DNA from: Nitrospirota bacterium
GTDB lineage: Bacteria; Nitrospirota; JACRHJ01
Length of the DNA: 64,000 nt
NCBI GenBank assembly: GCA_963845245.1
Contig: CAWJRJ010000014.1
Coordinates: 79,134 to 143,133 of the forward strand
Reading direction: 5' to 3'
The notes below the pieces were generated by a model. That model had not been told where the DNA came from. It was given only the letters and a program-made list of their open reading frames with translations, and ran no database searches. The stretch's first letter is position 1; every line of letters begins with the position of its first letter. This document shows, piece after piece, positions 8,005 to 35,989 of the stretch. Made by a program: the position numbers and the translations under genes.

Positions 8005-8032
8005 CGGGGTCTATGCATTCCGGAGGTGCACC

Positions 8033-8179: not shown

Positions 8180-8354
8180 CAAAAATCGCAAGGGCGGATT
8201 TCTGGATTACAAATAACTATTACAGGTCAGGAGGCATAAATGGCCAGAGTCACCCTGAGCGTCATAAAAGCCGCACGCGTCCGATTGAGGCAGCTATTTT
8301 CCTAACGGACAGACCTGATGCCTGCATACATCACCGCCAAGACAGACTAGGTAA

Positions 8355-10177
<1,823 letters not shown>

Positions 10178-13693: not shown

Positions 13694-14517
13694 GTCCATC
13701 CTCGGGATAGTGAAGGCGATGAAGGCCCTTTCAGCGGCCAACGTGCGGAAGGGATCGTCTACGCTCGGGTATACACGCCGTTACAGGGAGTTCATAGATT
13801 CGTCTGTCTCGCTTGCCGCAACATTTCCGGGCGTAAGCATATCCGTCCTAGGCAGGAGGAAGCTCCTTGTGGCGTTCGGTTCGCAGTACGGGCTGTGCGG
13901 CGCGTTCAACGAACGGGTGCTTGAGGCTAGTGGCTGAGGCCGAGGAAGAGCTCGGTGAAGTGGTCGGGCTCGTGCTGGTGGGGAGGCGTTTTGCGGACCT
14001 TGCCCTGGACGCTTACAAGGACGTGCCTGGAAAACCTGTGGAGGTTGTCGAGGCGCCCGGTTCCGTGGAGGGCCTTGCGGAAACCATTAACGTACTTTTG
14101 GAGACCCTTTACATAAAATACAAAAACGACGATTTCGACGAAATGTACTTTGTTTTCCCTAGTTTTGTAAACGACGCCCTTTTGCTCCAGAGGAAGGTTG
14201 CCCTGCCTCCGCAGTTTACACGTCAAGAGGACGGCACCGAACCCCCGCTTCTTTATATACCTCCTTCCGAGGTGGTTGAAGGGCTAGTGGAGGAATACCT
14301 CTATGTGAACCTTTTTTCAACCGCACTTGAGACAGTGATAGCCGAGAACGAAAGCCGCATGAGGAGTATGGACTACGCACAGCGAAGCATAAAGAAAAAG
14401 GTGGAGGAGCTTGCATCCTCTTACAACTATGCCCTGCAGGAGGAAATAACGGGCGAGCTTTTGGAGATAATAGGCGGGTACGAGGCATTAAGAGAAGCCG
14501 GGCACAGCGGGGGTTGA
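13650..14517 (+). pseudogene. atpG: N-type F-ATPase gamma subunit, reading frame broken near 13925-13935
   Basis: The N-terminal 95 aa (to ...GLCGAFNERVLEASG*) and the C-terminal part (LVAEAEEELGEVVGLVLVGRR...) lie in different frames. One extra nucleotide around gaggct-a-gtggct restores continuity. Confidence 0.7.
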
Positions 14518-20575: not shown

Positions 20576-20953
20576 CTCAAAGCCGTCCGGGCGGCCGCTG
20601 CTTTTGCGCAAGCAGGAGGAGAGGAAAGTCCGAACTCCGCAGGGCAGGGTGCTGGATAACGTCCAGGGGGGGAAACCTCACGGAAAGTGCCACAGAAAAC
20701 AGACCGCCCCGTAATGGGTAAGGGTGAAAAGGCGAGGTAAGAGCTCACCGCCCCGGTGGCGACATTCGGGGGCAAGGCAAACCCCACCCGGAGCAAGACC
20801 AAATAGGGGGACGTTTAAGGGCGGCCCGCCCGTGTCCCCGGGTCAGGTCGCTAAAGGTCCCGGGTAACCGGTACCGTAGAGGAATGGTCGCCATCTCTTT
20901 TCCCCCGAAAGGGGAAGGGATACAGAATTCGGCTTACAGGGCGGCTTTGAGTT
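20576..20953 (+). ncRNA. rnpB: RNase P RNA, bacterial type A
   Basis: Conserved blocks GAGGAAAGTCCG, ACAGAAAACAGACCGCC, GGTAAGGGTGAAA and ACAGAATTCGGCTTAC. P1 pairing of 20576-20588 with 20939-20952. Confidence 0.85.
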
Positions 20954-20979: not shown

Positions 20980-21180
20980 TCAACCCCGGCTGCGTCCAGA
21001 ATGGCTTATGGCCTTCTGCTCGTCGGCCGCGTTTACGCGGATTGCAAGCCCGCAGTCGGAGCTTATGTCCCTGGGTTTTGTGACTACCTTGCAGGCAAGG
21101 CCCGCGCCCTTCAGCGCCCTTTCGGCCTTGAATGTGAGGAACGTGCTTTTGAAGACTATTACCTTGAATGTATCAGACAT
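20980..21180 (-). CDS. DUF3343-type putative Se/S carrier protein (C-terminus probably frameshifted)
   Basis: FKSTFLTFKAERALKGAGL...PRDISSDCGLAIR matches my recollection of DUF3343. A frame shifted by 1 nt from about 21005 continues as ILDAAGVEKLGDMVRVELKAAL and stops at 20934-20936. Confidence 0.6.
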   Translation of the reverse strand: MSDTFKVIVFKSTFLTFKAERALKGAGLACKVVTKPRDISSDCGLAIRVNAADEQKAISHSGRSRG

Positions 21181-21217: not shown

Positions 21218-22048
21218 TCACAGGTATTGAAGACTGAGTGTACCCTTTTCATGTTTGGGTATGATCTTCTGGAGCATCTCGATGATACCCCTTCCCATGC
21301 CCGTGATGATCTCCGGGCCGAGGTACGAGTCCGCCGTCGGGTCGAACATGACCCTCAGCTTCGAAGGAAATTCGTCCTCCTCCCGCCAGTAGAGCACCAG
21401 CATCGGCACATTGGGGAGCGGAAGCAGGGCTACCGCGTAATCGGCATCGAAGCCACCGACGCTCGTTCCTCCGAAAATCCTGAGAAGCTCGAAGAAGACG
21501 TCCGTGTGCTCGTCGGCTATGACCCTGAGCGGCTCCTCGAACCTCTTCGAAAAATAACCCACCGTGGTGGCTCCGCTCTTCAGCTCGCCGAAGGGGACCC
21601 AGCGGCCCTCAGTGGCCATTGGGTCTGGCGTCGAGGCGTATGTCAGCACAAGCCACTGTATCCAGTTGTTGACATGACACTCGGAGGATATAACGCCTTA
21701 GTCGTCCAACAGAAACTCCCTGCCCAGGACGCGCACCGAGAGCCTGTCCGTCTTTGAACTCCGCGCCGAGCCTTGGGGCGGCGGCCTTCAGGTCCGTGAC
21801 TGCGTACCTTGTCCCTGAGCGCGCCTATGGATTCTAAAGCCGGAAGCTGCAAAGCCACCAGACTGGTCCGCGTCGTCCATACGCCTGCCGATCTTTTCGG
21901 CTGCGTCGCCGCTTAAGTGGGGGCAATCTTCCGCGCCTTTGACGCCAGATGCGGCGGACTGGGCGAACGCCATGCATGTGGCAAGGCCGCACTCACCGCA
22001 GTTTGACTTGTTCAGGAGTTTGTATATTTCCAGCAGTTGAAGGGCCAT
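21218..22048 (-). pseudogene. Fe-S-cluster-domain / DUF3786 protein, disrupted
   Basis: The N-terminus carries the NCGECGLATCMAFA...CPHL Fe-S motif, and the C-terminal 143 aa look like DUF3786. The middle 200 nt reads sensibly only by hopping frames three times (near 21855, 21800 and 21745), and there is an in-frame TAA at 21698-21700. Confidence 0.6.
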
Positions 22049-22066: not shown

Positions 22067-23209
22067 TTAAACTGAAGAGGCGATGGCCTTTACCGCCTCA
22101 ACCGCCCGGTCTATCTCCTCGGCGGTGTTGAAAAAGCCCGGGCTCATCCTCACTGCACCCGTCGGGTAACTGCCGATCGTCCTGTGGGCGTCGGGCGCGC
22201 AGTGGATGCCCACCCGAACCGCAATATCATATTCTGAATCAAGGGCGTTACCGACAGCCGCGGGGTCGACCCCTTCTATGTTGAATGAGACCACGGATGC
22301 CCGCCGTGAAGGTTCCTTCACTCCGTATATATGTAGGCCTTTTATCGCCGTGAGGCCGTCCATCAGCCTGCCACAGAGCATAACCTCATGTCCCCGCACC
22401 TTCTCTATGCCTGTTTCCATAATGAACTCGATACCCGCACCCAGCCCGGCAATCCCCGGCGTGTTAAGTGTTCCGGCCTCGTGCCTGTCCGGAAGGAAGT
22501 CAGGCATCTTCTCAAGGTCGGACCTGCTGCCTGTCCCGCCGAATACCACCGGCCTCAGCCTCAGCTTCGACGAGATATAGAGGAATCCGGTCCCCTGCGG
22601 GCCGTATAGCCCCTTGTGGCCGGGGCAGGCCAGCATGTCTATCCCGAGCCTCTCGACGTCTATTGCCACCGAACCCGCCGTCTGTGCGGCGTCCAGCAGA
22701 ACCGGAATGCCAAGGCCGTGTGCCGCTTCGGCGATTTCTTTAACGGGAGTAATCGTCCCGATAACGTTTGATGCGTGGGTTATAACTATAAGCCTGGTCT
22801 TGTCCGTTACCGCTCCAAGTATATCCTTGGGATTTAAAACCCCCTCATTGGATGCGGGGACTTTCGTGACGCTCACGCCCGCCTGGGAGAGGAACCGTAG
22901 CGGTCTGACGACTGAGTTGTGCTCCATGGTGGTGGTTATGCACTCATCGCCCGGCTCAAGCAGGCCGTTGATTGCGAGGTTAAGCGCCGCAGTGGCGTTT
23001 GGGGTGAAGATGATCCTTTCGGTGTGGGTTATCCCGAAGAACCTTGCAACCGTCTCACGTGCCTCGAATATCACCCGGTCGGCCCCTATCGCCATGCTGT
23101 GACCGGAACGGCCGGGGTTTGCCGAAAGCGTACGCAGGACGAGGTTAATCTTTTCGTAGACCGTTTCCGGTTTCGGGTGCGATGTGGCGGCGTTGTCGAG
23201 ATATATCAT
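22067..23209 (-). CDS. Class V PLP-dependent cysteine (or selenocysteine) desulfurase/lyase
   Basis: 380 aa. PLP-lysine context GHKGLYGP and active-site GIHCAP loop. Reading frame is intact. Confidence 0.9.
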   Translation of the reverse strand: MIYLDNAATSHPKPETVYEKINLVLRTLSANPGRSGHSMAIGADRVIFEARETVARFFGITHTERIIFTPNATAALNLAINGLLEPGDECITTTMEHNSVVRPLRFLSQAGVSVTKVPASNEGVLNPKDILGAVTDKTRLIVITHASNVIGTITPVKEIAEAAHGLGIPVLLDAAQTAGSVAIDVERLGIDMLACPGHKGLYGPQGTGFLYISSKLRLRPVVFGGTGSRSDLEKMPDFLPDRHEAGTLNTPGIAGLGAGIEFIMETGIEKVRGHEVMLCGRLMDGLTAIKGLHIYGVKEPSRRASVVSFNIEGVDPAAVGNALDSEYDIAVRVGIHCAPDAHRTIGSYPTGAVRMSPGFFNTAEEIDRAVEAVKAIASSV

Positions 23210-23216
23210 GAACCCC

Positions 23217-24285
23217 CTAGTCCCTTACCCGCATTATCACCCCGAGCGCAAGCACGAATGCAAGGCCCAGGAGGGTGGATATCTGGCCCAGGTGGGAAGG
23301 CCCGGAGTTGCTGCTGGTTATCCCCCACGACTGTACTATGGCGCCCCCGGCTATCATCCCGAATACGGACGCGCCCGCATCGGCACTGCCCTGGCCTGCC
23401 AGTATAAGCTGGCGGAACGGGCAGCCGCCTATCATTATGGAGGTGACGCCTACAAGCGCCATGCCGAGGAAGCTCCAGCCGTAGGCAAGGTGCGAACCCG
23501 GCTGGCCTTCGAAGCCCGGCGAGAATGAACCGCCAAACCAACCGGCCAGGAAGGCGAAGAATACCATGGAAAGCAGGCCCCACAAGTAACTTTGTGTCGC
23601 CAGAGACGATGAAGTTACCGATGCTGCCTGTGACGCAGAAACGGGAACGCTGGGCAAGGTAGCCTATAAACAGGCCGGAACCCAGGGCCAATGTGCCGGG
23701 GGCTCTCTGCGCCCCGGGGCCTGTAGAACTGAAGTAGAGAAAGTCGGGTTTTATGACCACTGCGGCCACGAGGGCGGCCATGAATATCGGTATTATAAGG
23801 CCGTTTATGAAAGGCAGGGGTCTGGTGTCGCCCAGGTAGAAGCCGCGCCTAAGGAACACGTATCCGACCCAGATGCCAAAGACTAGGCCGGCCACTCCCG
23901 CTATGGCGGTGAAGTCGCCGTCAGTAAGCCTCAGCACCATCTTTATGGGACAGCCAAGGAATATCGAGCAGCCGACGATGAGCAGCACCCCGGCGAGGAA
24001 CCTGAGGATGGGAGACGAGCCGCCTTCGGGTTTGAACTCCCTTGCGATCAGGGCCGCAAACGTCCCACCCAGGACGAACCCCAGAAGCTCGGGCCTTATA
24101 TACTGCATCCTGTTGTTTGCGTGCAGTCCCAAGGAGCCCGAGAGGTTCTCCATGAAGCAAGAGACGCAGATACCGGAATTCCTGGGGTTTCCTTGGAAAG
24201 CAAGGAAAACTCCCAGTAGGCCGATGGCGCTGCCCGTCGCCACGATTACGATTATTTCTTTATGTCTGCGCCAGAAATTTATCAC
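23217..24285 (-). pseudogene. yedE: YedE-family Se/S transporter, frameshifted near 23578-23590
   Basis: The N-terminal 230 aa are YedE-like (CVSCF, RSRFCVTGS). The hydrophobic C-terminal half (LWGLLSMVFFAFLAGW...GGCPFRQL) continues in another frame (ORF 23217-23657). The in-frame continuation is Arg/Pro-rich nonsense. Confidence 0.7.
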
Positions 24286-24397: not shown

Positions 24398-24868
24398 TTA
24401 GCCTTCTCGTCGCCGGGGTTTTTGACGAAGTGCCTCGGTAAACTGAGGCATGCCCTCCTTGACCGTCGCCTTTATCCTTTTGCCTATGAACCTGGGAGAC
24501 TTGTTGTCAATGTAGTCCGGATCGATAAGCAGGGCTAGCCGGAATTCCCTGACTGCGGAAGGATAATCCATCAGCCTGGAATACCCTTGCCCAAGAAGCG
24601 CATGCACTTCACCCGAGGCAGGGTTTGCGGCCTCCAGGGCAGTTAGCGACCCGACCGATTCTTTCAACTGCCCGGCTTCCATCAGGAGCCTTGCGGCCTC
24701 GACCTTTTGGATCAAGTCTGGGGATGGGACTGATGAGCATGTCTTGGCATATGCAGCACGGGGCCTTGTAGTATCAGCGCCTCCGGAAATGCCGTAATAG
24801 ACGGCAGCCCCTGCAAGCAGGGCGGCTGCGGTGAGGTTCAGTATATCGAACCGTTCAAGTTTCATCAT
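24398..24868 (-). CDS. Membrane-anchored TPR-repeat protein
   Basis: N-terminal TM helix followed by TPR-like helices (ALLGQGYSRLMDYPSAVREFRLALLIDPD). Confidence 0.6.
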   Translation of the reverse strand: MMKLERFDILNLTAAALLAGAAVYYGISGGADTTRPRAAYAKTCSSVPSPDLIQKVEAARLLMEAGQLKESVGSLTALEAANPASGEVHALLGQGYSRLMDYPSAVREFRLALLIDPDYIDNKSPRFIGKRIKATVKEGMPQFTEALRQKPRRREG

Positions 24869-25807
24869 TTAGAACTTCTGGTATGGAGGCATATTGCAGG
24901 CCTTGGCCATCTCCCGGACCGTGTCGTAATCCGAGTCCTTCACGTCGGCAAAACCCTCTACCATTGCCGATTTAAGGACCTTGAGTTTTTCCCCGTCATA
25001 TTCCACGGTGTCTTCGGGCTTTATTGAAAGGATGGTATCCTTGAACTTCTTCGCCAGGTCTTCATCTACGTTCTCGCAGACGCCGAAGCTGCAGTACGGA
25101 ATCGGCTCGGACTCGGCTATTATCCTGAAATCGCCTGGGTCTATCTTGCCCTGTTTTGACATCTGCTCGAAGTCGAGCATCGGCACTGCTGCCGCGTCAA
25201 AATCCCCGTACATCAGAGAGAAAAGTATCTTCTCATGCTTGAACGAACCCTGCGGTGTCTTTATTATGATATCCTTCTCCGGATCTATCCCCTGCTTTAT
25301 AAGCATGTAAGACTGTACAAGATAACCGGTCGGCGCAAAGATCGGCCCAAATACCATCCTCTTGCCCTTGAGTTCGGACAGGGTCTTGATAGGGCTGTCC
25401 TTCAGGACCATTACAGCGCCGCTGGACTTGTTCTTGTATTTGCCGTTTACATCGCCGGCAAGTATCTCGACCCCGTACTTCTTGTTTAAATCAATATAGA
25501 GCAGTGAGTTGGTGTGGGTGAAGTCCACCTTCTTGTCACGGACGGCCTGATCGAAGTCTATGGTGTCTATGGTTACAGGTACTACGTTCATTCCGAGCTT
25601 TTGGGAGAGGTATGCTGTAAGTGGCTTGAACCTTGCTTCGGTCTCTTCCTTGCTGTTGCAGATCATAAAACCTACCCGCACGGTTTTCTTTGCGGCCTCG
25701 GGTTGGCTTTCCTTGCCCTTGCAGCCCGCGAACGAGGCGGCCACAGCTATAAAGACTACCGCGAGGACTGCAGGACGAAATAATTTGAACATAAAACTGG
25801 CTCCCAT
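24869..25807 (-). CDS. PhnD-like periplasmic substrate-binding lipoprotein
   Basis: Lipobox SFAGC. The pattern VRVGF...ARFKPLTAYLSQKLG...LKGKRMVFG is typical of phosphonate-type SBPs. No cognate permease or ATPase is adjacent. Confidence 0.7.
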   Translation of the reverse strand: MGASFMFKLFRPAVLAVVFIAVAASFAGCKGKESQPEAAKKTVRVGFMICNSKEETEARFKPLTAYLSQKLGMNVVPVTIDTIDFDQAVRDKKVDFTHTNSLLYIDLNKKYGVEILAGDVNGKYKNKSSGAVMVLKDSPIKTLSELKGKRMVFGPIFAPTGYLVQSYMLIKQGIDPEKDIIIKTPQGSFKHEKILFSLMYGDFDAAAVPMLDFEQMSKQGKIDPGDFRIIAESEPIPYCSFGVCENVDEDLAKKFKDTILSIKPEDTVEYDGEKLKVLKSAMVEGFADVKDSDYDTVREMAKACNMPPYQKF

Positions 25808-26210: not shown

Positions 26211-27323
26211 ATGATGCTGATTGCTTCCGGTGTTTTAACTGGTTTTCTGTTCGGTTACGTGCTGCAGCACGGGCGCTTCTGCATGAATACTGCGTTTCGG
26301 GAGGTACTCCTGTCAAAGGATTTTACCGTTTTCCGTGCGTATATTGTTGCGCTTCTTGTCTCGATTGTGGGCGCGAACCTTCTTGATCATTTCGGTTACA
26401 TGCACCTTAAGTCCTATCCTTTCACCTGGGTTGCCAACGTGCTTGGCGGTTACCTCTTCGGGATAGCGATGGTCATCGGGGGCGGTTGCGCATCCGGTAC
26501 CCTCTACAGGGTCGGCGAGGGCATGATAGGTTCGTGGTTTGCGGCCATTGGTTTCATGATAACAGCTAGCGCGACCCTCTCGGGCTTTCTCCGCCCGGTA
26601 GCGGAGTTCTTCTGGTTCGGCCCCGGTTTCGATCCGTCAAACCCGTCTACCGCCAAGTTTATGTATTCTGTTGTCGATGCAGAAGGAAACCCGGTACCTG
26701 TCAACCTGTACAACATAATAGGCGTCAACCGCTGGATAGTCATCTGCGTCCTTGGCGCTGCCGCGCTGATCTTTATCGCGAAGGGCAAGTTCAAGAAACC
26801 CGCAAACCAGAAGGGGTTTGTCTGGTGGACCACCGGCATCATGATAGGCCTCATAAGCGTAATGGCTCTTTATACTTCGGAAGTTTATGGCGGTTTTGCT
26901 CAGGCCAGGGGTATTTCTTTCTCCGGGCCGTATAACGAGCTTGTTGCATGGTTCACAAACTCCGGAAACCTGGGCGACCTGAAATCAATGGCGGGTGCCG
27001 CACCCGACGCAGATCTCGGCTCGCTTGCAAAGGTTGGAACCGTGACCTGGAGCCTGTGGCTGCTCCTTGGCATCGTGCTCGGTTCCCTGACATCCGCCAT
27101 TTCTACCAAAGAGTTTGGCTGGCGCGCACCAAATGCCAAGACACTTGTCACCCAGTTCGGCGGCGGCCTCTTGATGGGTTTTGCAGGCACACTGGCAGGT
27201 GGCTGCAACGTCGGCCACGGCCTGACCGGCATGGCGTCGCTTGCGCTGGCAAGCCTTGTCAGCCTTATCTTTATAATACTTGGATGTTGGACTATGGTCT
27301 ACTTCCTGTTCATCAGGGATTAG
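26211..27323 (+). CDS. yeeE: YeeE/YedE-family thiosulfate/sulfur-compound transporter
   Basis: 370 aa, two sulf_transp-type halves. The three conserved cysteines are in GRFCMNTAF, GGGCASGTLYR and GGCNVGHGL. AGGAGG Shine-Dalgarno. Confidence 0.85.
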   Translation: MMLIASGVLTGFLFGYVLQHGRFCMNTAFREVLLSKDFTVFRAYIVALLVSIVGANLLDHFGYMHLKSYPFTWVANVLGGYLFGIAMVIGGGCASGTLYRVGEGMIGSWFAAIGFMITASATLSGFLRPVAEFFWFGPGFDPSNPSTAKFMYSVVDAEGNPVPVNLYNIIGVNRWIVICVLGAAALIFIAKGKFKKPANQKGFVWWTTGIMIGLISVMALYTSEVYGGFAQARGISFSGPYNELVAWFTNSGNLGDLKSMAGAAPDADLGSLAKVGTVTWSLWLLLGIVLGSLTSAISTKEFGWRAPNAKTLVTQFGGGLLMGFAGTLAGGCNVGHGLTGMASLALASLVSLIFIILGCWTMVYFLFIRD

Positions 27324-27465: not shown

Positions 27466-28521
27466 ATGAAGAAAGGTATTTTGGCATCAATCGGGTTAAT
27501 GTCCGCCGCAGCCGTGCTGTCGGCAGGCATAGTAGTCGCGGGCGCGGCCGATGCTGCCGCTCCGAAGCTTAAGGGTATAGCTTATGTTGCTGGCCACGGC
27601 GGCCACCTGGCCGTCTTGAACCTGGCGACCGGCGATCTTGACAGGATAGTCATAACAGGCGCTGGCGGTGAGCTGGAAGGCAAGATAGCCGGCCTCGAAC
27701 TCGACGCGGCCCATAAGGGCGCCGGTGGCGGCACGCACGGCCAGGCGCTTGTCGGCCGCAACCTCTACGTCGGCCTTTTGAACGGCAAGATGATGAAGTA
27801 CAACCTCGACACCGAAAAGCTTACGGACCTCGGCCAGGTCGGCAAGAAGTTCTGCGGTACGGTCGAGGGGCCGGGCGGCAACCTCTACTGCGAGGATATG
27901 GCCGACGGCAACGTTTACGTATTTGACCCGTCCAAGGACAAGGCTGCCGACGTCATACCGGCCGGCATGTCGGTCTGCGGCATAGGCTGGGACAAGGGCG
28001 ACAAGAACGCCTTCATCTCAGACATGGTCCAGGGCAAGGTCTTCGTATACGACTGGAAGACCAAGAAGAAGACGGACACCATCGATATCGGCACCTTTAT
28101 CCACCAGGGCCGCACCAACCCCGCCCGTACCGAGTTCTGGGTAACCTCTCCTAACGAGTTCACCGTCGGCGACAAAGGCCCGGTGCCCAACTCCGTTGAC
28201 CCGAACCGCAAGGACAGGAGCAAGAGCGAAGTTGTCATTGTCGACATGGCGAAGAAGAAGGTCAAGGACAGGATAGACCTGACCGCCGAGCAGGCGTTCC
28301 CGCATGACCTCGCCTTTACCAAGGATGGCAAGTACGCCCTCGTTACCGCCAGGACATATGGCGACGACTCCATCCTGCTCACCATCGACGCCAAGACCCA
28401 CAAGGTCCTGAACGAGACCTCACTTTGCAAGGCCTGCCACGAGCCGTCCGGCATAAAGGTCAGCATAGACCAGGGCTCCCCGCTTCTCTGCGGCATAGAA
28501 GTAGATTGGGCTGCGAAGTAA
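27466..28521 (+). CDS. Exported beta-propeller protein with a single C-terminal CxxCH motif
   Basis: Signal peptide MKKGILASIGLMSAAAVLSAGIVVAGAADA. Repeated blade-like segments (YVAGHGG, LYVGL, VYVFD, VFVYD, FWVTS, ALVTA). CKACH lies 35 aa from the C-terminus. GGGAGG Shine-Dalgarno before 27466. Confidence 0.7.
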   Translation: MKKGILASIGLMSAAAVLSAGIVVAGAADAAAPKLKGIAYVAGHGGHLAVLNLATGDLDRIVITGAGGELEGKIAGLELDAAHKGAGGGTHGQALVGRNLYVGLLNGKMMKYNLDTEKLTDLGQVGKKFCGTVEGPGGNLYCEDMADGNVYVFDPSKDKAADVIPAGMSVCGIGWDKGDKNAFISDMVQGKVFVYDWKTKKKTDTIDIGTFIHQGRTNPARTEFWVTSPNEFTVGDKGPVPNSVDPNRKDRSKSEVVIVDMAKKKVKDRIDLTAEQAFPHDLAFTKDGKYALVTARTYGDDSILLTIDAKTHKVLNETSLCKACHEPSGIKVSIDQGSPLLCGIEVDWAAK

Positions 28522-28572: not shown

Positions 28573-28600
28573 TGGACAACATGTAGCCTTAATGTATAAT
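28573..28600 (+). promoter_or_regulatory. Sigma-70-type promoter for the DUF4418-FtsX-ABC operon
   Basis: TGGACA (28573-28578), 16-nt spacer, TATAAT (28595-28600). Confidence 0.4.
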
Positions 28601-28672: not shown

Positions 28673-29071
28673 TTGATAAATAGAAAAAGAGTAACAGGTT
28701 TTCTGTTCGGCGGCATCATACTATCCTCGTTGCTGGTCGTGATTTTGCCTCGCTTTGTTTTTCCGGTCTGCGAGTCGCCGATGCACTGCTATTACAGTTA
28801 TATGGCCGAGCTGGCATTGTCAGCCGTAGCCGTTTCGTCCTCACTTGCCGCCATTTTTTCGAAAGGACTTGAGGCGCCGAGGATGCTATCAATACCAGTG
28901 TTTGTCTGCGGCATTTTCGCAATCGCGTTTCCTTCCTTTCTGATAGGGGTTTGCGCCAGTCCGGAGATGGCCTGCCATTATGGTGACCTCCCTGTCTGGA
29001 ACCTGTCAGGCGGACTGATGGTTCTGTTGTCACTTGCGGTATTTCTGATCTCAAAGGAGGAGGCCGATTGA
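28673..29071 (+). CDS. DUF4418-like 4-TM membrane protein with Cys/Met/His motifs
   Basis: 132 aa with four hydrophobic helices and motifs PVCESPMHCYY and GVCASPEMACHYG. TTG start. Stop overlaps the permease start. Confidence 0.6.
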   Translation: MINRKRVTGFLFGGIILSSLLVVILPRFVFPVCESPMHCYYSYMAELALSAVAVSSSLAAIFSKGLEAPRMLSIPVFVCGIFAIAFPSFLIGVCASPEMACHYGDLPVWNLSGGLMVLLSLAVFLISKEEAD

Positions 29072-30270
29072 GGAAGCTCGGGCTTTTTTACCTTGCTACA
29101 AGCAATATTAAACGAAAATTATTCAGGACCATCTCGATAGTCCTGTCCGTCGCCGTTGTGGCCGGTACGCTCTTTTCGGCTACGATGGTCATATACAGCG
29201 TCAAGAGGAGCATAAACATAGGTACGGAGCGGCTCGGGGCCGACATACTCGTGGTGCCTGCCTCGGCCGAGCAGCAGGCGCGTACAGCGCTTATTTCAGG
29301 AGAGCCTGGTACATACTACATGGACCGTTCTGTGCTGGACAAGGTCAGGCAGGTAGAGGGCGTGGAGAAGGCTACCCCGCAGGTTTTTATCGAGTCGTCG
29401 TCTTTTTCGTGCTGTTACGTCGGCAATGTGCTTCTCATCGGATTCGACCCGGCAACCGACTTCTCCGTCACCTCCTGGCTTTCTGATTTCTCCGGCAAGT
29501 TCGGCTCGGACGACATAATAGCCGGACGTGAAATACCGACATTAAAGGGCAGGACACTGACATTTTACGGCCACCCGTTCAAGGTCGTCGGAACTCTTGC
29601 CCCGACCGGGATGCATTACCTGGACAACTCAGCATTTATAACAATGGATTCCGCCTACCTTATGGCGGCGGAGTCAAGCAAGAAGGCCAAGAAGACCATC
29701 CAGGTTACGCCTAACCAGATTTCCACCGTACTGGTGAAGGTGAAGGAAGGTTTCACTCCCCAGAGGGTCGCGGTAAAGATAAACTATGCGGTCGACGGGG
29801 TAAAGGCCATCGCATCGAGTGAGGTGATCTCCACCGTAAAGGAGCAGCTCTCGACGCTTTTCACCTACCTCTTCACGATAGGCGGGATAGTATGGGTTAT
29901 GGCGCTCCTCCTTATAGCCGTGGTCTTTTCCATGATAGTCAACGAGAGGCAGCGTGAGATAGGGCTGCTGCGGGCGATGGGCGCTACCAAGGGCTACATG
30001 TTCCGCCTGCTCGTCACCGAGGCCTGCATCCTTACCACGGCCGGAGGGGTTACAGGTGTGAGTCTAGGGGCGATAATCGTGTACAGTTTCAAAAACCTTA
30101 TAGTAAAGGAACTGAACGTGCCCTACCTCTGGCCTTCGGCCTCTTTCACAGCGATGCTTATGGCAGGGTGCGTTGCCGTATCTTTGATCACAGGCGTCAT
30201 TGCGGCCCTCTACCCTGCATCGTTGTCCGCAAGGATGGAGCCGTACAGCGCCATCAGGAAAGGGGAGTGA
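29068..30270 (+). CDS. FtsX-family (MacB-like) ABC transporter permease
   Basis: 400 aa. TM1, a periplasmic domain of about 230 aa, and a C-terminal FtsX bundle (VNERQREIGLLRAMGAT). Confidence 0.85.
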   Translation: MRKLGLFYLATSNIKRKLFRTISIVLSVAVVAGTLFSATMVIYSVKRSINIGTERLGADILVVPASAEQQARTALISGEPGTYYMDRSVLDKVRQVEGVEKATPQVFIESSSFSCCYVGNVLLIGFDPATDFSVTSWLSDFSGKFGSDDIIAGREIPTLKGRTLTFYGHPFKVVGTLAPTGMHYLDNSAFITMDSAYLMAAESSKKAKKTIQVTPNQISTVLVKVKEGFTPQRVAVKINYAVDGVKAIASSEVISTVKEQLSTLFTYLFTIGGIVWVMALLLIAVVFSMIVNERQREIGLLRAMGATKGYMFRLLVTEACILTTAGGVTGVSLGAIIVYSFKNLIVKELNVPYLWPSASFTAMLMAGCVAVSLITGVIAALYPASLSARMEPYSAIRKGE

Positions 30271-30274
30271 GGCT

Positions 30275-30941
30275 ATGATAGAGATAGTAAACCTCACCAA
30301 AACATACCATGACGGTGAACAGTCGCTTACGGTAGTCAATGAGGTCAACCTCAAAGTGGCGCAGGGCGAGCTTGTAAGCATAGTAGGACATTCCGGCAGC
30401 GGCAAGACCACGCTCCTCTCGCTTATGGGCGGTCTTACGAAGCCGGACGGCGGTACCGTCAAAATAGGAGGTACGGATATCTGGTCGCTTGGTGACGACC
30501 GGCTCTCCGAGTTCAGGAACCGGAACGTCAACTTCATATTCCAGTTCGCAAGCCTCATCCCGACACTCAACGTCCTCGACAATGTGCTCCTGCCTTCTGC
30601 ATTCGGGAGCCAGCACCCCAGGCCTCGAAGATTATGCAGTGGAGCTTCTGAAGTTGGTCGGCCTGGGGGACAAGGTCAGGAGTTATCCGGCCAGGCTCTC
30701 AGGCGGACAGCAGCGAAGGGTCGCCATAGCGCGGGCGTTCATAAATTCTCCCAAGGTGGTACTGGCTGACGAGCCGACAGGCGACCTCGACGAGGCTACT
30801 GAGGCCGAGATCATGGAGATATTCAAAAAACAGAACGAGGGCGGCACGACGTTTGTGATAGTGACCCACAACAGCGCCCTTGCCGCTATAGCTCCGAAGC
30901 GGTATACTATGACTCACGGCATACTATCGGAGAAGATTTGA
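30275..30941 (+). pseudogene. ABC transporter ATP-binding protein, frameshifted near 30608-30622
   Basis: Walker A GHSGSGKTTL is in one frame (ORF 30200-30769). The signature LSGGQQRRVAIARAF, Walker B LADEPTGDLD and H-loop VTHN are in another (ORF 30489-30941). The junction is at a CCCC run. Confidence 0.75.
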
Positions 30942-31243
30942 AGACCATCCATGTAAAAATGGCATGCATCTTTCTGGTCTTCTTCATCGTCCAGGCGATG
31001 TTGCTGAGTTCCGTTTGCGTCTCCACCAAGGGCTTTTCCGCCGCCAAGGAGAAGGTCCTGATTTCCCTTGATGTCTGCGGCCACGGCGGGGCAACCGGAG
31101 TTTTAAGTTTGACCGACTTCGACATTACGATACCTACCGTGCCTCAAATCTTCCTGATAGAATCAACAGTTTTTCCTCCGACCCCGGGTGAAACCGTCGC
31201 TTCGGTTGAACCTGGAGAAATAGACGACCCCCCGAAATCCTGA
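30938..31243 (+). CDS. Small signal-anchored or exported protein (101 aa)
   Basis: TTG start overlapping the ATPase stop. N-terminal hydrophobic helix. Motif LDVCGHGGATG. No family recognised. Confidence 0.4.
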   Translation: MKTIHVKMACIFLVFFIVQAMLLSSVCVSTKGFSAAKEKVLISLDVCGHGGATGVLSLTDFDITIPTVPQIFLIESTVFPPTPGETVASVEPGEIDDPPKS

Positions 31244-31353
31244 TGGGGCAACCGCCCCCCCGCTGCAACCCCAATAAATTTTAAAAGGCTACTCCTCATT
31301 AAGCCTTCATGAGGATGTTCGAGTTCTGCCATAAACAAGCAAGGAGTAGTACG

Positions 31354-32388
31354 ATGAAAGGGTTCATTTTGTCATTGCGCCTTAAATGCGCAGTTACGCT
31401 TGGTTTGGTCGCTATCGGCTGGCTGCTGGCGCCGGTGAATGCTCTGGCCTGTGCAAGTTGTGGCTGCACATTGAGTCCCGATTGGGAAAACCTGCCGTCT
31501 TCCGTTTCGTACATGCCGGGATTAAGGATGGACTTGCGCTATGACTATCTGGACCAGGACCAACTGCGACGCAGGGGCGGGACTATTTCCGCCCATGACG
31601 CCAGCCGGATTACGAACGGCGGCAATCCCCAGGAAGTAGAAAAATTCACCAGAAACAATTACCTGACACTGGGAGCCGATTACAGCATAAACCACGACTG
31701 GGGAGTTAATGTCCAACTCCCTTACATAGATAGAGCCCATAGCACGCTTGGGACGGCATCGAACGGGGTGACCCCGGGGCCTGGCGGAGGGCAGTACGAC
31801 TCGCATACCGCTAACATTGGCGATATAAAGTTGATAGGGCGCTACCAGGGTTTTACCCCGGATTGCAACTTTGGCGTTCTTTTTGGGGTCAAGCTGCCGA
31901 CCGGCAGCTTCAGGCAGACAGGAAATTCGACCGACCCGACTGCGCCGGGTGCCGTCCCTATCGACCGCGGCTTGCAGCCTGGTACAGGTACTACCGATCT
32001 GATTTTTGGCACATATTATTCCGATGAGCTGACTCAGAACGTGGATTACTTCGGTCAGGCGATTTACCAGAAAGCATTGGACTCAAGAGTCCAGTTTAAG
32101 CCAGGCGATGGCCTTAACCTCAACCTGGGGTTGCGGTACTTGGGGTTTTCTCGTATTATCCCCCAGCTCCAGTTTAACTTCCGTTACGTCCTGCACGATA
32201 TGGGTCATAATGCGGACACCGTCAGTACAGGAGGGACATTGATGTATATCAGCCCGGGTATCTCCGTGCCGGTCATAAGGCATGTTTCGATGTATGGTTT
32301 TGTGCAGGTGCCGGTTTACCAGTACGTACATGGAGTACAACTCGCGCCGCGTTTTACAACCTCTGTAGGTGTGCGTTACTCATTTTAA
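31354..32388 (+). CDS. Outer-membrane beta-barrel protein with Cys cluster at the mature N-terminus
   Basis: AAGGAG Shine-Dalgarno. Signal peptide ends ...VNALA, then CASCGC. Alternating beta-strand pattern, motif LQPGTGTTD, and a C-terminal aromatic residue (VRYSF). Confidence 0.7.
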   Translation: MKGFILSLRLKCAVTLGLVAIGWLLAPVNALACASCGCTLSPDWENLPSSVSYMPGLRMDLRYDYLDQDQLRRRGGTISAHDASRITNGGNPQEVEKFTRNNYLTLGADYSINHDWGVNVQLPYIDRAHSTLGTASNGVTPGPGGGQYDSHTANIGDIKLIGRYQGFTPDCNFGVLFGVKLPTGSFRQTGNSTDPTAPGAVPIDRGLQPGTGTTDLIFGTYYSDELTQNVDYFGQAIYQKALDSRVQFKPGDGLNLNLGLRYLGFSRIIPQLQFNFRYVLHDMGHNADTVSTGGTLMYISPGISVPVIRHVSMYGFVQVPVYQYVHGVQLAPRFTTSVGVRYSF

Positions 32389-32430
32389 GGTCAAGGGGCA
32401 TTTATCAACCGATTTTCAAAAGGGGTACAA

Positions 32431-33487
32431 ATGAATTCGAAATACAAAAGACGGCTATTTTTTATAACGATTTTAGTTTCTTTTCTATACGGGTCTGTCG
32501 CTTGGGCAGGCGGTTTCTGCTGCCAGATGCAGTCCGGTGTGGGGCAGAACGGCCTTTCGGGCGCCGGAAACGTCAGCCTCGGCGTGGATTACTCCTACAG
32601 CAGGATGTCCAGGTTCATGCAGGGTGACGACTCGGTGAGTCTTGCGGCAGTGCTTGACGACCCGAGGTTCAGGCCTGCGGCGATGGGAAAAATGATGGGT
32701 ATGGGTGTAGTGCCGGATGAGATGACTATGCAGCGCGTAACCCTGACCGCAGCCTACCAGCCTACCGACAGGCTTGCATTGTCGTTGTCCGTCCCATGGG
32801 TGATAAACGATATGACCATGTTCATGTGGAAAGACATGGGACTGGGTGGCAGTTGGACCAAGATAAAGATGGACCAGGTATCCGGGCTTGGCGACATAAC
32901 CCTGTTTGGCTCTTATAGGGTCTACCAGGACCAGGAAATGAGGCCCAGGACCTCGCTTTGGGCGGGGGTCGGAATAAAGTCACGCATCAGGTTCTTCAAC
33001 AGTGGACGAGGGTGGGAAGAGGGTCCACGCACACATGCAACCTGGCACCGGCTCCTGGGACCCAATTCTGAGCCTGAACTACGTCAAGATGATAAGCTCG
33101 GCCTTCCTGTTGAAGGCTGGCGGGACGTATCATATCGCGACCGACAACAACCTGAATTATAATTATGGCAACACTCTCGCCGTTGACACCGACCTTGCCT
33201 ACAACCTGACCGACTACATGAACGTCTCGCTTGGTTTCAATTATTTTCATTCAGATAAAGCCCAAGACCCGGACAATAATTATAACGGACAGAATCCGCA
33301 CAGGCTGACGGACTATGTAGGATATACCGGAGAGGACAGTATCTGGGTTTCGCCCACAATGCGTATAATGCCTCTGGCTGGCATGGCCGTTGATTTTAAG
33401 TTCCAATATCCGCTGTATTATCATATCCCGGTCATCGCGCAGGTCACGGACTTCCGGGTAACGGGAGGCCTCTCCTACAGTTTCTAA
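32431..33487 (+). pseudogene. Paralogous outer-membrane beta-barrel protein, frameshifted near 32974-32985
   Basis: The N-terminal part (signal peptide, GGFCCQMQSG) and the C-terminal part (MQPGTGSWDPIL...GGLSYSF) lie in different frames. The homologous motif in the paralog (LPTGSF...LQPGTGTTD) spans the break. Confidence 0.65.
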
Positions 33488-33502
33488 CATCTGCACAAAT
33501 CA

Positions 33503-33531
33503 AAACGGCGCGGGCATGGCCCGCGCCGTTT
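33503..33531. terminator. Bidirectional hairpin terminator between convergent genes
   Basis: Near-perfect palindrome AAACGGCGCGGGC-atg-GCCCGCGCCGTTT flanked by A-rich and T-rich tracts. Confidence 0.6.
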
Positions 33532-33551
33532 ATTCTTTTACGCTCTACTCC

Positions 33552-33989
33552 TTAAAACCATTCCGCCCCGGCCTCGACATCGCTTTGGGAGATAACCAGG
33601 TTCCCCCCCTCCGCCTTGCTGGGGATTTTAATCGGCACGCAGTTCCCGATACCCGTATCGAGGTTTTCGATGCTGAAGGCCGTGTTGCAGTACCTGCATA
33701 CCACGCAGCCATTTTCGGTCCTGTACCCCATGTGGTGAGGGTAGCAGGTGATGCAGGCGTCGAAGGCTGTCTTGAACTCCCCGTCTTCCGAACGGGCAAC
33801 GAGGAACACAATATCCTTGTCGCCATAATGATGGCTGAAGAACCGGACATTCCCTTTTTCAATACTGGCTGTATTAATTATAAACTTGCCGTCCCGTGGC
33901 GCGATCTCCTCGCCCCTGGATTTTTTGCCGCAGGCGAATAGGGACACAAGGACAAGAGACAGGATTATTGTCGTCGTGATTTTTTTCAT
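33552..33989 (-). CDS. DUF2318-type 4-Cys lipoprotein
   Basis: Lipobox SLFAC. Motif DACITCYPHHMGY...GCVVCRYCNTAF (CxxC ... CxxC) as I recall for DUF2318. Confidence 0.7.
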   Translation of the reverse strand: MKKITTTIILSLVLVSLFACGKKSRGEEIAPRDGKFIINTASIEKGNVRFFSHHYGDKDIVFLVARSEDGEFKTAFDACITCYPHHMGYRTENGCVVCRYCNTAFSIENLDTGIGNCVPIKIPSKAEGGNLVISQSDVEAGAEWF

Positions 33990-34065
33990 TATCCAGATTA
34001 AACCATAAATTGATACGACATGGAAGAGTTTTAGTGCAGGCCTGAGTGTTTTTTATCTCTGTTGA

Positions 34066-34094
34066 TTGACTTCGTTTTTGCATGATGTTATTAT
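34066..34094 (+). promoter_or_regulatory. Sigma-70-type promoter for the multihaem cytochrome gene
   Basis: TTGACT (34066-34071), 17-nt spacer, TATTAT (34089-34094). This places the track start at 34082 upstream of the transcription start. Confidence 0.5.
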
Positions 34095-34120
34095 TTTGTA
34101 ACGCCATAAAAAGGAAGCTG

Positions 34121-35989
34121 ATGAGTAACAGGCTTGTTATCGGGAAATTAAGTGATATCCTATCCAAACCCTTCGTTATTTTTATTCTTTTTGCCCAGTT
34201 CGCGGCAGCGATAATCATAGCCTCGGCATACCACGGCCGTAGCAGTTCCGACGGCTGCCTCTACTGCCATGCGGACAAGCGGGCCATGGCCCGCATGGGC
34301 GCGCCCGGCCTCTATGTCACCCGTGAACAGGTCGAGAAGGAATCCAATATGCCCGGCGTCACCTGCCTGGACTGCCACCTGGGCGACGGCCGCTCACACG
34401 ACAAGGACACAGCCCACAAGGGCATGCTCAGCCTGATACTTCTCGACCAGGACTTGAACCGCATCCCGCGCAAGGGCAGGATGGATATAATCGCCCCCTC
34501 AGGCTCCGACAGGCTCTACGCCATGTTCCCCAAGATAAACTACGACGGCGCCCAGGTCCCCGACCCGGACATCTTCACCGTCCTGTGGCATGACAGAGAC
34601 CCCATAACCCTCGGTTACGACAAGACCATATCCCAGAAGACCTGCGGTAAGAGCGGCTGCCACCCGCAGGAGGTCAAGCAGTTCTCCGATACCGTTATGG
34701 GCGGCAACGTCCGCCAGCGTTCCATGGGTCACTGGCTCGACAAGCATGGCCCAAACAACTGCGGGCCGTCGTTTGCCGACCTGCCTCCCGGCAGCGGGGC
34801 CGGTTTCTCCGAAGCCAATTACAAGATCATAAAGGACGACCTGGCGTGCCCGTCCACCTACAGGAACGCCACCGACCGCCAGCGCTTCTGCAACGTCTGC
34901 CACGCAGGCTGTCTTGACTGCCATTACCAGCCCGTAAAGAGCATGCATTCCTTCAGCAGGCGGATACCTTCCGAGAACTGCACCGGAGGCGGACGCGGCA
35001 CCGGCATGTGCCATTCCGGGAGCCAGGAGCGAAGGCGCGGCGACAGCTACCTCGGTGCGGAGTTCTCGCAGCCGCCCGGACTGCCGACGGACGCACACTA
35101 CAAAAAGAAGATGGAATGCATGGACTGCCATGAGACGGGCGAGAAGGGGATGGGCGACATGCAGCGGAAGGTGGACTGTAGCGGCTGCCATTACGCCATC
35201 GTCAAGGCGCACGACGCCGGCGTACACCGGAAGCTCCGGTGCCAGGCCTGCCACATCTCCACGCTCGGGGGCTACCAGATGACCGTCTGGGGCGAGGGCC
35301 ACGTATCAGGTAGGCAGACCCCGTTCAAGAAGTACAGCCTGTACTACGGCACGATCGAGGAGCCCATCCTCATCAAGGACATGGAAGGCATGTATACCCC
35401 GTACAAGGTGTTCCCGAACGTCGCGACAAACATCAAAAGGCCGGAGGCCAAACGCGACGGCATCACGTTCCGCTGGCCGGGAGGGGAGACGAGGGACGCT
35501 TACGCCTTCCTCGGCACGTATGACACGCTCCCGAAGGCCAACCTCGCCCTTGCATTCATACAGATAGAGGCGGTCGGCCACCCCCTCGGCAAGTCCCGCA
35601 CGTGCGAGTCCTGCCACGGCTCGGATACCCAGTCCGCGAAGGCGCAGTGGGAGTACCTGGGCTTCACCGGCTCAGAGGCCTTCAAGGGCGCAAGCCTCGT
35701 TACCGCAGGCAAGGACGGCCTGAAGATAAGCGGGTTCAAGAATACCACGCCTATCAATATGATAGGTGATGCGGAACTGGCCGACTTTGCCGCGTGGCTC
35801 TACCTCGGCGACATATGGAACGTCAAAGGCGACTTCTCCATCCCGAAGTCCGACCCTGTGAAGTACCGGGAATATCTGAGGCAGGAGGGCGAGTTCAAGA
35901 GCCTGCTCGGGAAGAAGGCCGTGACCGCGAAAATCAAGTCCATAGGCGAGCATAACCCGAAGATGGGGCTGGATATTTTGAATAGGTAA
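34121..35989 (+). CDS. Membrane-anchored multihaem c-type cytochrome
   Basis: N-terminal TM anchor. Eight CxxCH motifs (CLYCH, CLDCH, CNVCH, CLDCH, CMDCH, CSGCH, CQACH, CESCH), plus CGKSGCH (CX4CH) and CTGGGRGTGMCH (CX9CH). Confidence 0.85.
   Translation: MSNRLVIGKLSDILSKPFVIFILFAQFAAAIIIASAYHGRSSSDGCLYCHADKRAMARMGAPGLYVTREQVEKESNMPGVTCLDCHLGDGRSHDKDTAHKGMLSLILLDQDLNRIPRKGRMDIIAPSGSDRLYAMFPKINYDGAQVPDPDIFTVLWHDRDPITLGYDKTISQKTCGKSGCHPQEVKQFSDTVMGGNVRQRSMGHWLDKHGPNNCGPSFADLPPGSGAGFSEANYKIIKDDLACPSTYRNATDRQRFCNVCHAGCLDCHYQPVKSMHSFSRRIPSENCTGGGRGTGMCHSGSQERRRGDSYLGAEFSQPPGLPTDAHYKKKMECMDCHETGEKGMGDMQRKVDCSGCHYAIVKAHDAGVHRKLRCQACHISTLGGYQMTVWGEGHVSGRQTPFKKYSLYYGTIEEPILIKDMEGMYTPYKVFPNVATNIKRPEAKRDGITFRWPGGETRDAYAFLGTYDTLPKANLALAFIQIEAVGHPLGKSRTCESCHGSDTQSAKAQWEYLGFTGSEAFKGASLVTAGKDGLKISGFKNTTPINMIGDAELADFAAWLYLGDIWNVKGDFSIPKSDPVKYREYLRQEGEFKSLLGKKAVTAKIKSIGEHNPKMGLDILNR

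Follow-up and report, generated by a model that had tools for sequence, protein, structure and literature searches.

Introduction

What is achieved by a run of neighbouring envelope genes when almost every one of them places a short Cys motif at a membrane or extracytoplasmic position? This question was raised by the centre of a 64,000-nucleotide stretch of DNA from a Nitrospirota bacterium (contig CAWJRJ010000014.1, positions 79,134 to 143,133; the whole stretch is called the window, and positions are counted from its first letter), where genes for a DUF4418 protein, an FtsX-type permease with its ATPase, a small exported protein, two outer-membrane β-barrels, an FtrD-like lipoprotein and a multihaem cytochrome lie side by side. 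An initial annotation of this DNA had proposed a relay carrying a thiophilic cargo between inner and outer membrane. Our analysis leads tentatively, at a probability of about 0.4, to a different arrangement: a soft cargo, Cu(I) being the likeliest, would be taken up under leader control and then passed on in the periplasm, with the MacB-type ATPase/permease unit acting as a mechanotransducer. The features of the locus are as follows.

28573-28600, plus strand: promoter-like site TGGACA-16-TATAAT upstream of the DUF4418 gene, matching at 11 of 12 positions (a consensus match only)
28673-29071, plus strand: DUF4418 gene (PF14387, E 8e-21; 75 bits against a cutoff of 27)
29068-30270, plus strand: FtsX and MacB_PCD permease gene (PF02687, E 5e-18; PF12704, E 3e-10)
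30272-30941, plus strand: ATP-binding cassette (ABC) ATPase gene, split by a one-nucleotide insertion, its halves matching ABC_tran, LolD and MacB models
30938-31243, plus strand: exported open reading frame (ORF) of 101 amino acids, the candidate leader, with no Pfam match
31244-31353, plus strand: leader-barrel spacer with a G+C hairpin and a stretch complementary to the Shine-Dalgarno (SD) sequence (anti-SD)
31354-32388, plus strand: barrel 1 gene, FapF/COG4313-like in its AlphaFold2 (AF2) model
32431-33487, plus strand: barrel 2 gene, split by a one-nucleotide insertion, scoring at the threshold of the Phenol_MetA_deg/COG4313 family
33503-33531, both strands: bidirectional terminator-like hairpin where the barrel 2 and FtrD-like genes converge (13-bp stem with 10 G-C pairs)
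33552-33989, minus strand: FtrD-like (DUF2318) lipoprotein gene (PF10080, E 4e-22)
34082 or 34121 to 35989, plus strand: membrane-anchored multihaem cytochrome c gene (8 CxxCH and 1 CxxxxCH)

Results

A conserved gene cluster

ORF mapping and profile scans placed all of the genes initially annotated, and the Cys motifs quoted for them, where they had been reported, and the set was found to be a real conserved unit rather than a chance juxtaposition, as its order recurs in at least eight contigs, those with organism names being Nitrospirota metagenome-assembled genomes. The synteny set combined a genome scan with barrel 1, which found relatives in 419 species genomes and from which 80 loci (58-74% identity) were kept, with look-ups from DUF4418 homologues; a metagenome scan with a DUF4418 profile gave nine loci only. 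Loci of this set are cited by number, and the same order was observed in L025, L028, L053, L063, L086, L088 and L102 (DUF4418 identity 41-96%). The Cys motifs were invariant or nearly so in the orthologues. As first reported, the window ORFs that were scanned include no membrane-fusion adaptor, P19, FTR1 or TonB-dependent receptor; P19 (PF10634) and FTR1 (PF03239) were also absent from all Nitrospirota-type loci and present only in the distant L101, and the Nitrospirota-type loci seen encode no membrane-fusion protein and no TonB-dependent receptor. None of the three outcomes named at the outset as speaking against a distinct system (chance co-occurrence of the families, P19 or FTR1 at every orthologous locus, unconserved Cys motifs) was therefore observed. 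Apart from a mention in a gene list, no paper on DUF4418 was found, and none was found on the barrel 1 family or on such a gene arrangement.

The plus-strand genes from DUF4418 through the barrel(s) overlap or abut their neighbours. Because of this, and because a promoter-like site and a terminator hairpin lie at the ends, the five or six genes in the order DUF4418, FtsX, ATPase, leader and barrel(s) look like a single operon, convergent on the FtrD-like gene; the site at 28573-28600, the best sigma-70-type match within 25.5-36.2 kb, probably marks where transcription of the unit begins. The ATPase and barrel 2 genes are present as annotated but each is split across two frames. Comparison with L086 (91-95% identical protein), which has the same gene order with intact ATPase (221 amino acids), barrel and YedE genes, revealed a single inserted base in the ATPase, barrel 2 and YedE (23206-24285) genes of the window, placed by DNA alignment at ~30608, ~32980 and ~23578-23597, respectively. 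Since three genes within 10 kb have each gained one base, and the frames downstream of all three insertions are open and conserved, the frameshifts are probably assembly indel errors rather than decay, and pseudogenisation of the ATPase and barrel 2 is less likely. The repaired ATPase matched ABC_tran with an E value of 2e-33. Elsewhere in the window, an ATP synthase gamma ORF (13867-14517) covers just the C-terminal two thirds of its profile and thus looks truncated, which again suggests indel errors.

A candidate regulatory leader upstream of barrel 1

The 101-amino-acid ORF had first been taken for an exported component of the relay. Its product has a signal-like N-terminus (hydrophobic from 1 to 31), a DVC47GHGG motif and the ending DDPP98-99KS before the stop codon; Cys47 lies 51 residues from the PP, and barrel 1 starts 110 nucleotides further downstream. 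CruR and CutF, which belong to DUF2946, sense copper as nascent peptides; their Cys motif lies ~45 residues ahead of a proline arrest motif at the C-terminus, and the studied DUF2946 members are degraded regulators (PMC9426467, PMC9973294).

A small exported ORF was almost always found directly upstream of barrel 1. This ORF is a true DUF2946 in Proteobacteria (E 3e-14), and in the Nitrospirota-type loci the upstream ORFs fall into three other groups, one of them the window type, none with a Pfam match. All groups share a common design of signal-like N-terminus, D/N-x-C and terminal PP, with a gap from PP to stop that is mostly 2-3 residues (2-6 codons overall). The distance from Cys to PP was 45-49 residues in the DUF2946 group (n=29), 50-54 in a DVCH group (n=24) and 49-51 in the window type (7 loci and 18 library representatives), whose relatives carried D[VIL]C and the terminal PP in 18 of 18 cases. 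Leader-like ORFs preceded the barrel in 70 of 89 loci, with the same definition picking out 0.3% of the other ORFs there. The window-type family is rare, having 19 representatives among 1.84 billion proteins; it shows one conserved Cys (DVCG[H/K], the His being frequent and not invariant), and the C-terminal 15 residues of the leader are highly conserved. Leader design, Cys-to-PP spacing and the downstream barrel point to an arrest peptide, and we consider the 101-amino-acid protein more likely to be a regulatory arrest peptide of the CruR/CutF type, and a candidate metal sensor, than a relay subunit.

In the spacer that follows, the G+C hairpin (31245-31258) starts 2 nucleotides past the leader stop, and the anti-SD stretch (~31288-31296) pairs with the barrel 1 SD in the minimum-free-energy fold. 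A G+C-rich hairpin 2-7 nucleotides after the stop was present in three of four loci (the window, L087 and L088; not L086), and the SD pairing was likewise not kept in L086. No riboswitch that would name a ligand was found in window 20-37 kb at E values up to 1.

Outer-membrane barrels with N-terminal Cys clusters

Barrel 1 (344 amino acids) starts at 31309 in the ORF list, but the ATG preceded by an SD sequence is at 31354. Its predicted mature N-terminus is CASCGC, and the pattern A-C-x-S-C-G-C was invariant in 72 of 72 homologues. There were 2293 homologues, of which the 120 listed were 60-74% identical, and the relatives kept or listed came from Nitrospirota, Burkholderiales, Pseudomonas, Verrucomicrobiota and others. 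The AF2 model (predicted local distance difference test, pLDDT, 83) matched 12-stranded barrels, the Foldseek hits being FapF (5o67; E 3.5e-13, template modelling score 0.73) and a COG4313 channel (4rl8; E 5e-9, score 0.71). Homologues of 330-355 amino acids (P0018, P0029, P0047, P0108 and others) are named 'TonB-dependent receptor' in public records; barrel 1 gave no Plug, TonB_dep_Rec or PF13557 match, and as its homologues have no plug domain this label is wrong.

Barrel 2 has the predicted mature N-terminus GGFCCQ, which was kept in 6 of 6 sequences and aligns with the Cys cluster of barrel 1. The repaired protein scored 22.5 bits against the PF13557 cutoff of 22, and its orthologues were flagged as PF13557. 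It is the orthologue of the single barrel in L086, L087, L088, L096 and L099, which share 56-76% mutual identity, the window fragments being 61-67% identical to L086. The two barrels do not form a pair: relatives have either barrel 1 (L025, L028, L053, L063, L102) or barrel 2 (L086-L088, L094-L096, L099), and both occur together, among the loci compared, in this window only; the barrels are therefore alternatives at one position. In this channel family a short N-terminal segment ahead of strand 1 blocks the lumen; in the COG4313 channel Pput2725 it comprises the N-terminal 14 residues (PMC4493636). The Cys clusters of the window barrels are predicted to lie in the equivalent segment, which the barrel 1 model does not place.

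Two further observations were made beside barrel 1. A protein resembling split-Soret cytochromes (C_GCAxxG type, with a Tat signal and a C-terminal CxxCH) is encoded between leader and barrel 1 at L028:9089-9931, L053:1457-2317 and L102:12756-13550, and its relatives also occur near barrel 1 in L014, L021, L022, L029 and L030. YceI, PhoD, SulP, MipA and OprB genes near barrel 1 in Collimonas and Pseudomonas appear to be lineage synteny and were set aside as giving no functional signal.

The FapF match bears on whether the small Pro-rich exported protein might be a substrate, secreted via the FapF-like barrel and the MacB-type unit. MacB-type systems do secrete peptides, FapF, the best structural match of barrel 1, is a polypeptide transporter, and a conserved C-terminus such as that of the small protein would suit a secreted peptide. 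The fixed Cys-to-PP spacing and the stop 2-6 codons (mostly 2) after PP nevertheless mirror arrest peptides, the Proteobacterial equivalent is DUF2946 with its degraded regulators, and barrel 1 operons usually have no ABC unit, so that secretion appears improbable in the extreme.

DUF4418 and a Cys-bearing MacB-type unit

In 43 DUF4418 sequences, which include Ruminococcus and an archaeal-looking contig carrying DUF1894, C33, C94 and C101 were invariant and C39 nearly so; in the motifs CESPMHC and CASPEMACH, to which attention had first been drawn, it is thus the Cys that are conserved and not the His residues. The AF2 model is a four-helix bundle (pLDDT 91.5; helices 4-29, 38-61, 67-90 and 100-126) in which the pairs C33/C39 and C94/C101 are each predicted to straddle one short extracytoplasmic loop. 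A DsbB/VKOR-like protein would fit this topology, but no PDB fold match was obtained (best Foldseek E value 0.17, to generic four-helix bundles). The permease has TM-like (transmembrane) segments at 17-46, 261-295, 319-346 and 356-388, and its large periplasmic domain contains a vicinal pair, C115-C116, which the initial annotation, correct in finding Cys motifs in almost every gene, had overlooked. This CC is common to all DUF4418-linked FtsX orthologues, including those of the distant L089-L091 (in L089, one of two copies). If the copper/soft-cargo interpretation holds, it would offer a first way into the function of DUF4418 and of the FtsX partner with its Cys pair.

With an FtsX domain, a MacB periplasmic core between TM1 and TM2 and a LolD/MacB-like ATPase, the unit is a MacB-type (type VII) ABC system. 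It had been proposed to pump cargo from the inner to the outer membrane. However, neither HlyD/MFP nor OEP families, as expected of a MacAB-TolC-type tripartite pump, were found in the scanned window ORFs, L086-L088 or L102, and the DUF4418-FtsX-ATPase triad is also found in organisms that lack an outer membrane, which means that bridging two membranes cannot be its central task. A second MacB-type ATPase/FtsX pair (window 53-544 and 567-1781, plus strand; MacB_PCD E 6e-54) has no DUF4418 and is unrelated to the locus.

MacB-type transporters characteristically act outward, and proteins that handle Hg and As typically contain vicinal Cys pairs. One alternative considered was that the locus detoxifies or exports a soft metal or metalloid (Cu, Hg, As, Cd): the MacB-type unit would drive its substrate out of the periplasm or outer leaflet, and induction by the leader would follow the example of CutF and CutO, leaders of the CutF type being known to induce detoxification genes. 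We judge this very unlikely: there is neither a membrane-fusion adaptor nor a TolC-like duct, COG4313 barrels are uptake channels, the neighbours include NosL and TonB-dependent receptor/ExbBD uptake genes, and the loci contain no P-type ATPase, CusCBA or Mer genes.

The FtrD-like lipoprotein and the cytochrome

The FtrD-like lipoprotein (145 amino acids) has the lipobox LFAC20 and the conserved residues C79xxC82, C98xxC101 and C117; the two CxxC and one further Cys were kept in 14 of 14 relatives. In the motif first quoted (DACITC...CVVCRYC), both CxxC were conserved and the first Cys of CVVCRYC was not. Campylobacter jejuni FetA shows the same five-Cys pattern (PMC10783030). The haem-binding motifs of the cytochrome bear out the earlier count of at least eight CxxCH. 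The 131-bp divergent spacer described between the two genes holds with a cytochrome start at 34082 and shortens to 92 nucleotides with a start at 34121; a promoter-like site (34066-34094) overlaps the former, and the latter may be the true start. The divergent pair was kept in L015, L025, L028, L034, L053, L063, L086, L088 and L102. Of nine loci in one synteny comparison that had enough downstream flank, seven contained it, as did L102.

This constant pairing of the FtrD-like gene with a multihaem cytochrome suggests a pure redox relay without cargo, in which thiols of the periplasm or outer membrane would receive reducing or oxidising equivalents from the cytochrome, the FtrD-like Cys centre, DUF4418 and the CC of FtsX. 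Such a relay would accord with the published model of FetA/FetBCD/FetEF supporting FetMP (PMC10783030), with the DsbB-like topology and two extracytoplasmic Cys pairs of DUF4418, and with the redoxins and split-Soret-like cytochromes beside barrel 1. It would leave the ligand-sensing leader and NosL unexplained, however, electron transfer needs no ATPase, and DUF4418 lacks a fold match to DsbB or VKOR; we find it quite improbable.

Genomic context and the nature of the cargo

The conserved block extends beyond the seven genes originally delimited, an extent that was too small: the β-propeller, NosL (in relatives) and the TsuA/YedE-type genes belong to it. On its minus strand lie genes for DUF3343, a SclA-like desulfurase, seleno-YedE, a TPR protein and a PhnD-like binding protein; on its plus strand follow a TsuA-like YeeE, the β-propeller, sometimes NosL, then DUF4418, FtsX, ATPase, the small ORF and one barrel, and the block ends with the FtrD-like (minus) and cytochrome (plus) genes. 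The flanking features of the window are these.

20980-21180, minus strand: DUF3343-like carrier gene, conserved sulfur/selenium flank
22067-23209, minus strand: SclA-like cysteine desulfurase gene, conserved sulfur/selenium flank
23206-24285, minus strand: seleno-YedE gene, frameshifted, conserved sulfur/selenium flank
24398-24868, minus strand: TPR protein gene, conserved flank
24869-25807, minus strand: PhnD-like binding protein gene, conserved flank
26211-27323, plus strand: TsuA-like YeeE gene, two genes upstream of DUF4418
27466-28521, plus strand: exported YVTN/lactonase-type β-propeller gene ('c48'; 351 amino acids), syntenic upstream neighbour

The YedE1 orthologue scored 392 bits on TIGR04112 (cutoff 200). 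Between the DUF3343-like and desulfurase genes lie two small minus-strand ORFs (window 21218-22048), one with CGECGLATC, typical of a putative Fe-S domain; L086 has a 42-nucleotide gap without a called gene at this place, and the ORFs may be one frameshifted or inserted gene. A bacterial class A RNase P RNA was found at window 20579-20952 (plus strand; 315 bits, gathering score 100).

NosL (PF05573, E 1.7e-15) is encoded immediately upstream of DUF4418 in eight related contigs, among which two pairs each appear to be one and the same sequence. Beside barrel 1, Met/His-rich periplasmic proteins are encoded in nine loci and ResA/TlpA-like redoxins in about half of the loci. In two loci the leader and barrel 1 come after genes for a TonB-dependent receptor, ExbB, ExbD and a protein with a weak TonB_C match, and in two more such genes are neighbours of barrel 1. 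In Pseudomonas protegens CP060289 (L001:54-11633), an operon of a DUF2946-like ORF, barrel 1 and a redoxin adjoins a methanobactin-like locus that encodes MbnB, MbnC and MbnP as well as a MauG-type peroxidase, a TonB-dependent receptor and additional DUF2946 proteins. The leader type, NosL, the Met/His-rich proteins, the redoxins, the receptor/ExbBD genes and the P. protegens methanobactin context together favour copper. A thiophilic cargo remains the best reading, and of the candidates originally named Cu and Se/S stay live.

The propeller was present in all Nitrospirota-type loci with enough flank. Its invariant residues are H44, H47, H91, C130, M145, C171, M187, H213, H280, H312, C321xxC324H325 and C342, and its profile matched 1l0q (E 4e-17), thiocyanate dehydrogenase (E ~0.03) and cd1-type propellers in the PDB. 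Clade III L-NosZ (NF052460) was the best NCBIfam match and was rejected as an assignment, with 28 bits against a cutoff of 700 and ~75 residues aligned. The propeller could be a client enzyme of the system. On this basis the block might be a Nos-like maturation machine delivering copper, perhaps sulfide, to the adjacent propeller as a new periplasmic metalloenzyme, which by its profile matches may be distantly related to L-NosZ and thiocyanate dehydrogenase. The Cys-tipped barrel would then be the analogue of NosA and DUF4418-FtsX(CC)-ATPase that of NosDFY, with NosL present in relatives; the propeller would act on a sulfur or selenium compound, the product of which would be taken in by the TsuA/YedE carriers. 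The propeller would have the cytochrome as redox partner, and copper entry would be adjusted by an arrest-peptide leader belonging to a new family. We regard a maturation machine of this kind as unlikely.

More distant loci place the DUF4418 triad in two settings. In L101 (863-9529), genes for FTR1, P19, a 414-amino-acid FtrD-like (FetA-like) protein, two FtsX proteins and an ATPase are followed directly by DUF4418, FtsX and ATPase, and then by a sulfate ABC transporter and PAPS reductase/CysN-type genes. This order connects the triad with the Fet/P19 system, which depends on copper, and shows that the link of DUF2318 and FtsX/ATPase pairs to P19 systems, named in the initial annotation, is real. 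The triads of L089-L091 (~7000-9500 in each) are flanked by nitrogenase-like (Oxidored_nitro), NifB-like radical SAM, Cys_Met_Meta_PP, PALP and NMT1 binding protein genes; these loci look like sulfur-salvage clusters of Firmicutes, L089 (with DUF1894) probably coming from an archaeon.

Discussion

A proposed model of leader-gated uptake and hand-over

From the gene families, motif conservation, synteny, predicted folds, and the leader architecture with its enrichment upstream of barrels, we infer the following as to cargo, direction of transport, stalling, hand-over between sites and redox role. The soft cargo, most likely Cu(I), would enter via an outer-membrane channel of the FapF/COG4313 type, whose N-terminal segment bears the invariant Cys cluster. 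Synthesis of this barrel would be gated by the 101-amino-acid ORF as an exported nascent-chain sensor of the CruR/CutF kind: with the ribosome at the terminal PP, the sensor Cys, 51 residues back, would be just out of the translocon, and a ligand on it would alter stalling and hence downstream expression. Once in the periplasm, the cargo would move from one thiol site to another: NosL (where relatives have it), the FtrD-like lipoprotein, the vicinal pair of FtsX, and DUF4418 with the four Cys at its outer mouth. The MacB-type ATPase/permease would drive this hand-over as a mechanotransducer without pumping across a membrane, like NosDFY-NosL and as proposed for FetBCD-FetA, while the cytochrome and the FtrD-like Cys centre would hold cargo and thiols in the reduced state. 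The precedent, NosDFY-NosL, relays Cu in the periplasm and is driven by its ABC unit (see the summary in PMC13068155).

Several observations weigh against this model. The new leaders have no Pfam match and gave an hhalign probability of 6.6% against DUF2946 (PF11162), and since no homology was detectable we call the window leader CruR/CutF-like in design and not a family member; moreover, window-type leaders have a single conserved Cys and not the two-Cys metal motif (CxxC or CxxxC). The fold of the leader-barrel spacer was no better than that of shuffled sequences (z -0.32), so that no significant RNA structure was found there. Residues 24-52 of the barrel 1 model have a pLDDT <50, and its Cys segment is not confidently placed. 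The window itself encodes no NosL, redoxin or Met/His-rich protein, and its motifs are almost purely Cys, with vicinal CC, which would also suit Se, sulfane sulfur, As or Hg. The seleno-YedE/SclA-like/DUF3343 operon adjoins every Nitrospirota-type locus with enough flank, the TsuA-like gene shares the strand of DUF4418, two genes upstream of it, and in 4 of 4 distant loci the DUF4418 triad has sulfur-assimilation genes rather than copper genes around it.

The last of these points suggest a relay for acquisition of selenium (or of sulfane sulfur or thiosulfate), in which Cys pairs of the barrel, FtsX, DUF4418 and the FtrD-like protein would serve as carriers of Se or S in the form of selenotrisulfide or persulfide, with the cytochrome reducing oxidised Se or S and YedE/TsuA-type carriers importing the product for the SclA-like enzyme and DUF3343. 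The divergently adjacent seleno-YedE, SclA-like and DUF3343 genes make up exactly the Se set that PMC5322559 predicted. At the head of the DUF4418 strand stands a TsuA-like gene, the distant triads lie among genes for Cys/Met synthesis, sulfate assimilation, NMT1 and nitrogenase-like proteins, and Cys-only motifs with a vicinal CC would suit such a relay. The adjacency of the Se operon may, however, be inherited; it is weakened as evidence because the housekeeping genes NIF3, RNase H and PhoH are equally syntenic in this narrow clade. Proteobacterial barrel 1 genes lie behind DUF2946 leaders, in P. protegens next to copper genes, without YedE, and NosL and the Met/His-rich proteins indicate copper. 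Selenium or sulfur acquisition, the main rival of the copper model, is somewhat unlikely.

If leader-gated uptake of copper or another soft element is correct, the widespread, highly conserved and mislabelled barrel 1 would be a leader-controlled, TonB-independent entry route for it, and nascent-chain sensing of the CruR/CutF type would extend to Nitrospirota through families that current models miss. It would also give a clue to the role of the enigmatic FetBCD/FetA-type modules. The locus is relevant to the question of how copper or selenium reaches anaerobes living in sulfidic habitats, where these elements hardly dissolve, and as operons of barrel 1, DUF2946 and redoxin are present in tractable Pseudomonas and Collimonas strains, the central claims are directly testable.

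Comparison with known systems

The cluster is undescribed and is conserved in anaerobic Nitrospirota-type bacteria; its parts relate to arrest-peptide leaders, to COG4313 barrels and to Fet-type ABC/DUF2318 modules. Like CruR (Bp2923 of Bordetella pertussis) and CutF (Rhodobacter capsulatus), the window leader is shorter than 150 amino acids, has an export signal and is directly followed by a same-strand envelope gene, with a Cys sensor ~45-51 residues before a C-terminal PP that lies 2-3 residues from the stop. Unlike them it falls outside PF11162, has a KPPKA-like rather than an RAPP terminal motif, and is located inside an operon, after the ABC ATPase gene, rather than at the operon head.

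The model of barrel 1 matches the 12-stranded COG4313/Phenol_MetA_deg channels (Pput2725, SphA) and FapF, and barrel 2 reaches the Pfam threshold. Both window barrels differ from these in carrying a Cys cluster at the predicted mature N-terminus, and their context is one of metal and thiol genes, not of aromatic or lipid catabolism or amyloid export.

As modelled here, the locus shares with NosDFY-NosL (and NosA), which delivers copper to N2O reductase, a periplasm-acting ABC unit, an outer-membrane entry protein and a neighbouring β-propeller rich in His, Cys and Met, and in eight related loci NosL itself is adjacent. NosL, NosD and NosY were not found in the window, NosL being seen only in related loci; the window permease is of the FtsX/MacB type whereas NosY is of the ABC-2 type, and the propeller differs from NosZ in having no CuA domain and in scoring far below the L-NosZ cutoff.

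FetMP-FetABCDEF of C. jejuni, a P19/FTR1 iron-uptake system that includes thioredoxins, likewise combines a DUF2318 domain bearing two CxxC and one further Cys with an FtsX-type permease and ATPase. Thiol oxidoreductases occur in related loci as in that system, and L101 puts the DUF4418 triad after the FTR1-P19 set. In contrast, the Nitrospirota-type loci have no P19 and no FTR1, the FtrD-like protein of the window is a 145-amino-acid lipoprotein and not an 8-TM protein with a YHS domain, and there is one permease gene in place of two. To the Fet-type set the window adds DUF4418, the leader, the outer-membrane barrels and the multihaem cytochrome.

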